From UHGV virus genome UHGV-0030196: a stretch of DNA of 61,145 bases; one strand, written 5' to 3'. The notes below the pieces were generated by a model. It was not told the DNA's origin. It saw only the letters and a program-made list of their open reading frames with translations, and made no database searches. The translations under genes were made by a program, and so were the position numbers. This document shows, piece by piece, positions 113 through 1,714 of this stretch. Numbering within the stretch: the first letter of the stretch is position 1; every line of letters begins with the position of its first letter. Origin of the DNA: a virus.

Positions 113-137
113 AAACGCCGCTACTGCGGCGTTTTTT
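113..137 (-). terminator. GC hairpin (aacgccgc/gcggcgtt) followed by a T-run on the minus strand, directly after the dam stop
   Basis: Inverted repeat 114..121/126..133; minus-strand T-run follows. Confidence 0.5.
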
Positions 138-996
138 ACTTCATTATTGCAATTATATCGTTAGCAACTACACGTGTTGACGCCTTGCAGGAAACCGACC
201 GTCTGGCTGCCATATGATGTACTTTAAACCCGTTTCCTTCATATAGCTCACGGATGTTTGGAGCACCACTATTTGTTATCACTACCTTAGCGCCGCGCTG
301 GTGGGCATCCACCAACAGTGATACAAGCCGTTTTTGTTCATCGAAACGGAAGCTATTTCCTGAATAGCTGGTAAATCCCTCTGTATCCGGAAGCGGTTCA
401 TACGGCGGATCACAAAAAATCACATCGTCTTCACCAGCCGCCTCGATGACGCTAGCAAAGTCTCCTGATACAAAGGAAGTGTTTTTGAGTACGTCATCAG
501 CCAAAAATGCCTCCATCTCTGCATGTGGGAAGTAGGGCGCTTTGTATTTGCCATACCCCACGTTGAACTCGCCATTTTGGTTGTACCGCGTTACGCCATT
601 AAAACAGTGACGATTAAGGTACAAAAATGCGGCAGCATGATGTAGCTGGTCATATTTTCCTCTGTTAAATGCCTCACGCACTTCGAGGTAAGCGTCAGCG
701 TTGTTGTAATTTTTGAAAAAACTATATGACAGCGTGACGAGCGAATGTCCTTCTCGCTGCAATGTCTGATAGAAGTTAATCAGGTCACCGTTAATATCAT
801 TAAGCAGGTTGTGGCGAAATCCTGCATTCGTAAATACGGAACCGCCACCAACGAATGGTTCTATTAACCGCTTACCGTGTGGTAGATGCTCAAGCACTGT
901 AGGCAATTCTGAGAATTTACCACCTACCCATTTGAATATCGGACGCTCATATTCATCCGGAGTCCGAATGGTGCGCATATAGCTAATTTCAGCCAT
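136..996 (-). CDS. dam: DNA N6-adenine methyltransferase, Dam family
   Basis: FKWVGGK AdoMet motif and DPPY catalytic motif, alignable to E. coli Dam from memory; AGGA precedes ATG at 996, alternative ATG at 1041. Confidence 0.85.
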   Translation of the reverse strand: MAEISYMRTIRTPDEYERPIFKWVGGKFSELPTVLEHLPHGKRLIEPFVGGGSVFTNAGFRHNLLNDINGDLINFYQTLQREGHSLVTLSYSFFKNYNNADAYLEVREAFNRGKYDQLHHAAAFLYLNRHCFNGVTRYNQNGEFNVGYGKYKAPYFPHAEMEAFLADDVLKNTSFVSGDFASVIEAAGEDDVIFCDPPYEPLPDTEGFTSYSGNSFRFDEQKRLVSLLVDAHQRGAKVVITNSGAPNIRELYEGNGFKVHHMAARRSVSCKASTRVVANDIIAIMK

Positions 997-1033
997 CGTA
1001 TCCTGTTTTTCTATGGCTATGCTTGCTATAGAT

Positions 1034-1714
1034 TTACTCATAGAGCACCCCCTTATTCGCTTCGAAAACTGCCTTTGCGAATCCATGTGGAGTAGCACTT
1101 CGAAAATTAGCCCTGTCAGGCCCTGGTGGCGCGGCATGGATTCTGTTATCTGGCTTGCCTAATGATTCGTCCATTAGGGCATCAGGCATGACAAAGCCCT
1201 GGCCGCTCCAGAGGCATGTTTTTTTGGTGTAGTTATCTTCCTGACAATATGCAGTGAAGAAGTAAGGGTGAAAGATGTGATCTGGCTTACGCCAGAATGT
1301 CGATATTTTGCTGACCGGATTTTCAATCATGTACGGACAACCGATCATCTTTGCAATGTCATAACACTGCCAGACAACCTGCATTGCTTTGAACTGGAAA
1401 ACCGGATCTTTATTAGCCTTGTCCGAAAACCAGCGCGCGCCGGAAACAGCCAGGTCAGTACACGGTGGGAACCCGGCCAGAAACACGATGCGCTGCAAAT
1501 TCTTACGGAGAAAAGCGTATACTTCATCGCTATCGATGATCGCACTAATACGCGTCAGAACGGCACCTGATTGCATCCGCTCGTCACTGGTCGATAAGTG
1601 CTGTGGATCGACGATAGCGGCATCGACACCGTATTCCAGCCAGGGGGCAACCATTGCCCCCGTAAAATCACAAAGACTCACAACAAGCGGTCGGTTATTA
1701 TCGTTCTGCTTCAC
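1034..1714 (-). CDS. C5-cytosine DNA methyltransferase-like protein (catalytic half only)
   Basis: GFPPC (motif IV Cys) and ENPV (motif VI); only ~225-250 aa; start ambiguous (GTG 1714 or 1681, ATG 1654); 3' end overlaps the track's Dam ORF in another frame. Confidence 0.5.

Follow-up and report, generated by a model that had tools for sequence, protein, structure and literature searches.

In the phage-plasmid P1, cytosine-C5 and adenine-N6 DNA methyltransferases are joined in one polypeptide. Its dmt gene follows hrdC and encodes a bifunctional protein of 754 amino acids (aa), with an N-terminal PF00145 domain (E = 1.6e-35) and a C-terminal D12-class Dam domain, as the initial annotation of the locus studied here had rightly stated. 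To be packaged, P1 DNA requires Dam methylation of GATC at the packaging site pac, and for this reason dam- hosts cannot support P1 without dmt (review PMC12707154). In Escherichia phage D6 (record MF356679), three genes are annotated: orf65, of the RdgC family and ‘similar to P1 gene hrdC’; orf64, a ‘putative DNA-cytosine methylase; similar to Orf43 of phage ECO1230-10’; and orf63, a ‘site-specific DNA-adenine methylase; similar to C-term half of P1 dmt only’. Here we describe their counterparts at one end of the virus genome UHGV-0030196, a stretch of 61,145 nucleotides (nt) that we call the window. The arrangement is ordinary, already known and annotated in phage D6, and it very probably represents a natural rdgC-dcm-dam run that encodes two independent orphan DNA methyltransferases and did not arise by frameshift from P1 Dmt.

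C5-methyltransferases made from two ORFs (open reading frames) are also known. M.AquI and M.EcoHK31I are each encoded by two adjacent or overlapping ORFs, the second of which supplies the missing C-terminal C5 motifs.

A relative of the cytosine enzyme has been characterised in phage K42, a KarlJaspers-like member of the Drexlerviridae, whose 711-bp dcm gene is the trigger of retron Ec86 and is lost in escaper phages (bioRxiv 10.1101/2023.08.16.553469). According to the same preprint, expression of K42 Dcm leads to 5-methylcytosine (m5C) on the multicopy single-stranded DNA (msDNA), detected by mass spectrometry coupled to liquid chromatography (LC-MS), a CCTGG site in the msDNA is required, the enzyme is active when expressed alone from a plasmid, and a C82A/E128A/K175A/K176A mutant is inactive.

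Two separate genes in a D6-like phage-plasmid

Over its first 3.4 kb, the window has 94.5% identity to phage D6 and 99.9% to many plasmids of ~90 kb from E. coli and Salmonella, typed as non-mobilizable by MOB-suite, which identifies the element as a D6-like phage-plasmid related to P1. It has the gene order of D6 (glnS first, followed by dam, dcm and rdgC in the opposite orientation) and also its 8-nt overlap of dcm with dam and its 17-nt overlap of the rdgC stop with the GTG start of dcm (1698..1714). The dcm genes are identical at 681/681 nt and the dam genes 97.6% identical at the nucleotide level. There is no substantive difference between the two loci, and the window represents a further member of the D6-like group, closer to the plasmids than to D6 itself. 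A GenBank plasmid record with annotation in the style of PGAP has the three genes at the same coordinates and labels their products Dam, hypothetical protein and RdgC; the RefSeq-derived plasmid records in PLSDB likewise label the 226-aa dcm product ‘hypothetical protein’.

As first proposed, two separate ORFs on the minus strand fill positions 136..1714, exactly up to the annotated ends of the coding sequences. They do overlap in different frames, but the overlap of 104 nt originally given (1034..1137) is an artefact of taking the longest frames in a machine-made ORF list (136..1137, 333 aa; 1034..1786, 250 aa). Since the dam ATG lies at 1041..1039 and the dcm TAA at 1036..1034, the true overlap is 8 nt, ATGAGTAA, within a junction that reads GCGAATAAGGGGGTGCTCTATGAGTAAATC. 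This ATG is also the start annotated in D6 and in the PGAP-style plasmid record. We read the junction in five loci and found three distinct overlaps. A locus whose Dcm is 83% identical (L024) has the same ATGAGTAA with an in-frame TGA directly 5' of the dam ATG, which excludes a longer Dam and led us to reject a conserved N-terminal extension up to the ATG at 1137. At two loci of ~74% nucleotide identity (L007 and L025), AAGGAGG is followed by GTGGCTGA, and where Dcm is 64% identical (L029) dcm and dam overlap by 19 nt.

Conservation is in agreement with two natural genes, an option that the initial annotation had listed beside others and that the annotation of D6 and of the plasmids already favored. 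At least 80% of the two-gene stretch is covered by 98 plasmid records, and rdgC, dcm and dam follow one another in that order and on one strand in 23/23 D6-like viral contigs (L008-L030). The ratio of nonsynonymous to synonymous polymorphism (pN/pS) is 0.13-0.15 for dcm and 0.06-0.12 for dam; both genes are thus under purifying selection. The two-gene architecture recurs in diverged relatives, with its junctions, and selection preserves both genes, which excludes a recent frameshift as well as a sequencing error.

A complete Dam-family adenine methyltransferase

Judged from its profile matches and motifs, the downstream ORF of 301 aa is a complete D12-class Dam, as had been supposed. It matches PF02086 with E = 7.4e-57 (193.4 bits, cutoff 22) and TIGR00571 with 250.6 bits (cutoff 114.85), and its translation carries the S-adenosylmethionine (SAM)-binding FVGGGSVF (FxGxG) and the catalytic FCDPPYEP (DPPY). 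Aligned to residues 478-753 of P1 Dmt it shows 69% amino-acid identity. Because P1 dmt is annotated as methylating adenine in GATC, the protein most likely methylates GATC, yielding N6-methyladenine (m6A).

A compact family of C5-methyltransferase-like proteins

The upstream ORF had been called C5-methyltransferase-like, a view upheld by its motifs DFTG (SAM-binding loop), PPC and ENP and by a predicted fold that matches C5 enzymes. Its 226-aa product matches phrog_757 (‘DNA methyltransferase’) with E = 3.4e-78 over profile positions 7-222 of 247 and has at least 7915 homologues, nearly all of 206-258 aa and none with a Pfam domain. Such relatives occur in 1591 phage records, among them Drexlerviridae (T1-like, Klebsiella 1513 group), Dhillonvirus, jumbo Escherichia myoviruses of ~135-165 kb, and phages of Campylobacter and Flavobacterium. 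The near-full-length profile match and the thousands of homologues of the same length speak against the truncated C5 domain once envisaged; the 226-aa protein belongs, in its complete form, to a compact family.

Across 37 aligned sequences, 58 positions are invariant, including ones in the motif I loop (LCDxTG), VDPQH, IID, FPPCT, ENPV, the YTKKT strand and RSATPxGFAxAV, and these include the catalytic-type Cys85 (FPPCT, motif IV) and Glu131 (ENPV, motif VI). Judged by their position, the YTKKT strand and the RSATPxGFAxAV helix are the equivalents of motifs VIII and X. The protein was therefore misdescribed as having ‘motifs I-VI only’, since both elements follow ENP and the missing part is the large target-recognition domain. 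The AlphaFold model is confident (predicted local distance difference test, pLDDT, 84; predicted template modelling score, pTM, 0.84) and presents a Rossmann-type sheet, a disordered loop right behind the PPC cysteine and a C-terminal helix. The structure predicted for the 226-aa protein has the fold of a C5-methyltransferase catalytic domain. The catalytic domain of DNMT3A/3B, a eukaryotic multi-domain enzyme unlike the compact Dcm, shares only 9-13% sequence identity with it, a likeness of fold and not of family.

From the KK strand (166-171) to the RSATP segment (205-209) there are ~30-35 residues, mostly coil, and the large target-recognition domain expected between motifs VIII and IX is not present in the 226-aa protein. 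As the whole compact family is built without this domain, nothing has been truncated. Two members that are 63-64% identical to the window Dcm (P0006 and P0009) have a 28-residue insertion between the KK strand and a PDNRIH segment (columns ~205-238 of alignment A1). This insertion sits where canonical enzymes have their target-recognition domain, so that the loop may set specificity in the compact family.

In the Warwickvirus phage tuinn, a 711-bp gene specifies a protein that shares 40% identity with the window Dcm and has C82 in PPC, E128 in ENP and K175/K176, matching the positions mutated in K42 Dcm. When the window protein is aligned with those of Warwickvirus and KarlBarth, its C85, E131, K164 and K165 correspond to these four residues. 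The gene is conserved at 95-100% across the Warwickvirus group, and the BASEL authors label the copy in FritzSarasin ‘Dcm-like C5 cytosine methyltransferase’. We connect tuinn to K42 through the same length of 711 bp, the matching residue numbering and the BASEL label of the FritzSarasin gene, which is 98% identical; KarlJaspers is not among the 60 near-identical dcm genes listed. The Warwickvirus and window proteins are of the same family and build, keeping the Cys (PPC), the Glu (ENP) and the Lys-Lys strand. They differ in a 14-residue insertion that the former has before the KK strand and in the loop before the RSxTP segment, and the Warwickvirus gene resides in a Drexlerviridae phage, where the 1.5 kb to either side of it contain no annotated Dam. 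Given that a 40% identical relative with matching Cys, Glu and Lys-Lys is active, we may reasonably infer that the 226-aa protein makes m5C in DNA. By contrast, the CCWGG specificity reported for the K42 enzyme is not transferable to it, because the loops flanking the KK strand differ.

Some other members of the family deserve mention. In phage KarlBarth (Dhillonvirus; L005, 1498-3530), a putative homing endonuclease gene comes next after the Dcm-like gene, and a 161-aa ‘Dam-like’ gene lies two genes past the Dcm-like one, so that cytosine and adenine methyltransferase genes are found close together outside the D6 group. On a short ENA contig of 1053 nt (P0004), one 305-aa metagenome gene call runs from the C-terminus of RdgC across the untranslated stretch 5' of the dcm start and on into the Dcm frame. 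This is a single member on one contig, and most likely an indel error or a truncated call, not a real fusion. The 83-kb contig IMGVR_UViG_3300047673_000158 has two Dcm-like gene copies ~43 kb apart (L067 and L068), which suggests a concatemeric or duplicated assembly.

Alternative explanations for the two ORFs

Comparison with P1 provides the grounds for suspecting a broken gene. The fused C5-Dam gene of P1 occupies the same place, directly after the rdgC/hrdC homologue, its Dam domain is homologous to that of the window, the two window ORFs overlap in different frames, and fused alleles are known from a plasmid whose flanking genes are the same. Nevertheless, there is virtually no chance that a P1-type dmt was split by a frameshift, whether through mutation or sequencing error, and that the ORFs are the halves of one former gene. 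The P1 protein is a single polypeptide whose C5 part is a canonical PF00145 domain of ~460 aa, about twice the length of the 226-aa protein and without detectable similarity to it. BLASTP against P1 Dmt residues 1-477 gave a best E of 2.9, and hhalign against the N-terminal domain a probability of 0.2, the single-sequence template making this a weak test of very distant homology. The alignment of both halves to P1 Dmt that had been recommended thus succeeds for the Dam half and finds no homology for the C5 half. Homology to P1 Dmt reaches no further than Dam residue ~23 and is absent from the upstream ORF, which speaks against the frameshift that the initial annotation had considered. At the sequence level, the C5 genes of P1 and D6 are not detectably homologous, and the Dam half alone is shared. 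Instead of a single ORF with PF00145 and Dam, the window has two frames and a stop codon, and dam has a Shine-Dalgarno sequence and an ATG of its own. The start/stop overlaps recur with differing sequences, L024 even having a stop in the dam frame before the ATG, the family of the 226-aa protein consists of stand-alone proteins ending at the same position, and the arrangement is common to all the plasmid records and viral contigs counted above. It is also very unlikely that the short C5-like ORF is a degenerate or truncated remnant, either dead or acting as a non-enzymatic DNA-binding or regulatory protein. It is far shorter than canonical C5-methyltransferases (~330 aa or more), lacks their large target-recognition domain, has no Pfam match and passes for hypothetical in PLSDB, but its presumed catalytic residues are all invariant (motif I loop, Cys85, Glu131, KK, RSATP), the length of the family is uniform, dcm shows the low pN/pS reported above, and a relative of the same build made m5C in dependence on its Cys, Glu and Lys-Lys.

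Two further explanations accept an intact protein and concern the way in which it works. The compact enzyme might be unable to pick targets alone and work in complex with the neighboring Dam, in a non-covalent version of the P1 fusion. Two unrelated kinds of C5 module indeed lie directly 5' of the same Dam (as a fusion in P1 and L006, overlapping here), the compact enzyme is nearly devoid of a target-recognition domain, and KarlBarth has its Dam-like gene close to the Dcm-like one. We consider such a complex quite unlikely, because no Dam or RdgC gene occurs within 4 kb at 57 loci of more distant Dcm homologues, K42 Dcm is active alone and the window Dam is a complete enzyme with high identity to the Dam domain of P1 Dmt, whose gene is annotated as GATC-methylating. 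The 57 loci without Dam and the activity of the K42 enzyme imply that the compact enzyme generally needs no Dam partner, although the two might still interact in D6 specifically. The locus resembles M.AquI and M.EcoHK31I in its adjacent or overlapping methyltransferase ORFs, but it does not encode a split two-subunit C5-methyltransferase of their kind: the second ORF is a complete D12 Dam, the first has its own motif-X-like helix, and 226-aa homologues exist without a Dam neighbor. Finally, the compact enzyme could transfer a group other than methyl, for example carboxymethyl from carboxy-S-adenosylmethionine (Cx-SAM) like phage CmoX. CmoX owes its selectivity to an Arg in the active site, with Cx-SAM being provided by E. 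coli (PMC12783734), and the compact family does have an invariant Arg205 at the start of the motif-X-like segment. However, the neighbors here are rdgC and dam, with no cmoA or ligase gene, the typical companions of CmoX (PMC12783734), and the K42 relative, with the same RSxTP segment, gave m5C by LC-MS, which makes this explanation highly improbable.

Several points weigh against a natural run encoding two independent methyltransferases, or against parts of this reading. Pfam and NCBIfam searches with the C5-like ORF returned no matches, and neither the window protein nor any of the 37 family members matched PF00145 even at E <= 10, where a Pfam scan of the 37 yielded nothing but chance matches. 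Searches of PDB sequences with the single protein and with the family profile also gave chance matches only (BH2621, ornithine decarboxylase, E ~0.4). No sequence-profile method thus ties the compact family to PF00145 or to any solved structure, and its link with C5-methyltransferases consists of fold, motifs and one preprint. The characterised relative, moreover, is 40% identical by sequence and differs in the loops that most likely read DNA. The GATC specificity of Dam is deduced from homology, and the protein scores 240.5 bits against the E. coli Dam equivalog NF008152, whose cutoff is 441; by sequence it is a member of the Dam subfamily, not an equivalog of the host enzyme. The promoter scan, in turn, pinpointed no promoter driving rdgC-dcm-dam.

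Taking both sides together, we favor a natural run of two independent enzymes. The upstream gene would yield a complete compact C5 enzyme of 226 aa, with a Rossmann-type domain, DFTG, Cys85, Glu131, the K164/K165 strand and a motif-X-like helix, in which a loop of ~30 residues would replace the canonical large target-recognition domain. The downstream gene would yield a complete Dam, most likely acting on GATC and translated from its own ATG, 6 nt past the Shine-Dalgarno sequence that lies in the final part of dcm; through the ATGAGTAA overlap, translation of the two genes is probably coupled, that of dam to that of dcm. Both enzymes would methylate the DNA of the phage-plasmid during lytic growth and/or plasmid maintenance.

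Exchange of C5 modules next to Dam

The plasmid pZX35-94k (L006, NZ_OR257475.1) has the flanking genes of the window (glnS, rdgC, baseplate) and belongs to the same replicon cluster (1704), but its C5 part is P1-type and fused in frame. At positions 4001-6289, between glnS and rdgC, it has a single 2289-bp gene whose 762-aa Dmt shares 85% identity with P1 Dmt as a whole, with hardly any differences in the C5 domain, while its C-terminus has 93% amino-acid identity to the window Dam. A blastn comparison aligned window positions 1-966 at 96.8% and 1698-3400 at 82.6%, with nothing aligned between. As the alignment breaks at 966/1698, the exchanged segment extends from the rdgC stop codon to Dam codon ~25, and in pZX35-94k it is replaced by 1441 bp with a P1-type PF00145 domain fused in frame to dam. 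The hybrid junction is matched full-length at >=95.5% identity by 14 plasmid records, including pZX35-94k, and in ~500 P1-like plasmids the match to the window is confined to its Dam part, with ~69% identity.

The slot holds either a stand-alone compact gene or a fused P1-type PF00145 domain. Although more speculative and, in our view, rather doubtful, it might be a recombination hot spot where D6- and P1-like phage-plasmids swap non-homologous C5 modules around a constant Dam. The exchange would be driven by restriction protection on one side and m5C-sensing defences such as retron Ec86 on the other, and the linkage of C5 and Dam selected via co-expression or co-action.

Flanking genes and signals

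The coordinates of the genes and signals are given in Table 1. The rdgC product matches PF04381 with E = 5e-103 and NF001462 with 381 bits (cutoff 330). The sigma-70-like match upstream of rdgC is a lead only, the scan having found fewer promoter-like sites in the real sequence than in shuffles. The hairpin downstream of dam, reported by the scan for both strands, has a 9-pair stem with 6 G-C pairs. Window positions 1-87 on the plus strand are the 3' end of a phage-plasmid-borne glnS (glutaminyl-tRNA synthetase), convergent with dam, whose counterpart in D6 is annotated as similar to E. coli GlnS.

Table 1. Features of the rdgC-dcm-dam locus, in window coordinates
Feature	Coordinates	Strand	Basis
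Terminator-like hairpin flanked on each side by T-runs, where glnS and dam converge	113..134	.	consensus scan only
dam, 301-aa Dam-family N6-adenine DNA methyltransferase (= D6 orf63)	136..1041	-	profiles, P1 Dmt identity, motifs
Exchangeable cassette: dcm and the first ~25 dam codons	967..1697	-	blastn vs L006
dcm/dam start/stop overlap ATGAGTAA, 8 nt	1034..1041	-	direct sequence reading
dcm, compact Dcm-like C5-cytosine DNA methyltransferase, 226 aa, GTG start (= D6 orf64)	1034..1714	-	
Shine-Dalgarno AAGGGGG for dam, 6 nt 5' of the ATG, within the dcm 3' end	1048..1054	-	direct sequence reading
rdgC (P1 hrdC homologue), first gene of the rdgC-dcm-dam run	1698..2603	-	PF04381, NF001462
Shine-Dalgarno GGAGG for dcm, 9 nt 5' of the GTG at 1714	1724..1728	-	direct sequence reading
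Weak sigma-70-like match, candidate rdgC-dcm-dam promoter, in the 59-nt gap 5' of rdgC	2636..2665	-	9/12 hexamer positions

Methylation sites and likely functions

The only stretch of the window with five GATC in 200 bp is 33701-33940, in the 5' third of an ORF of 454 aa (32837..34201, minus strand). The first 48 residues of this ORF resemble coordinates 90529-90672 of the P1 record (35% identity, E 3e-6), a region taken to be pacA. The cluster as a whole spans 33565-33886, with five sites in 33752-33886 plus TGATCA at 33565 and 33610, and is the only dense one in the window. By analogy, it looks like a P1-style, Dam-regulated pac site, and a role of Dam in packaging similar to that in P1 is plausible. 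As in P1, GATC methylation could then serve packaging at pac and possibly also plasmid replication.

We also compared site frequencies over the whole window with dinucleotide-preserving shuffles. GATC occurs 212 times (235 +/- 13 expected) and CCWGG 178 times (89 +/- 10 expected). Neither site is avoided, so that avoidance gives no clue to specificity; GATC is at expectation and CCWGG at twice the expectation, an excess that may only reflect E. coli-like codon and oligonucleotide usage. Cytosine methylation most likely protects against restriction, with sensing by defences such as retron Ec86 as a possible cost.

Biological meaning

The 226-aa protein now labelled ‘hypothetical protein’ deserves the label of a compact Dcm-like C5-methyltransferase and is not a broken P1 dmt. 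D6-like phage-plasmids are common in E. coli and Salmonella, and their DNA probably bears both m6A and m5C. These marks would influence how well restriction is evaded and, to judge from P1, also packaging; should the enzyme act as its relative in Warwickvirus does, sensitivity to methylation-sensing defences (retron Ec86) would be affected as well. The compact and fused alleles found at the same slot offer a small, clean case of module exchange between phage-plasmid lineages.

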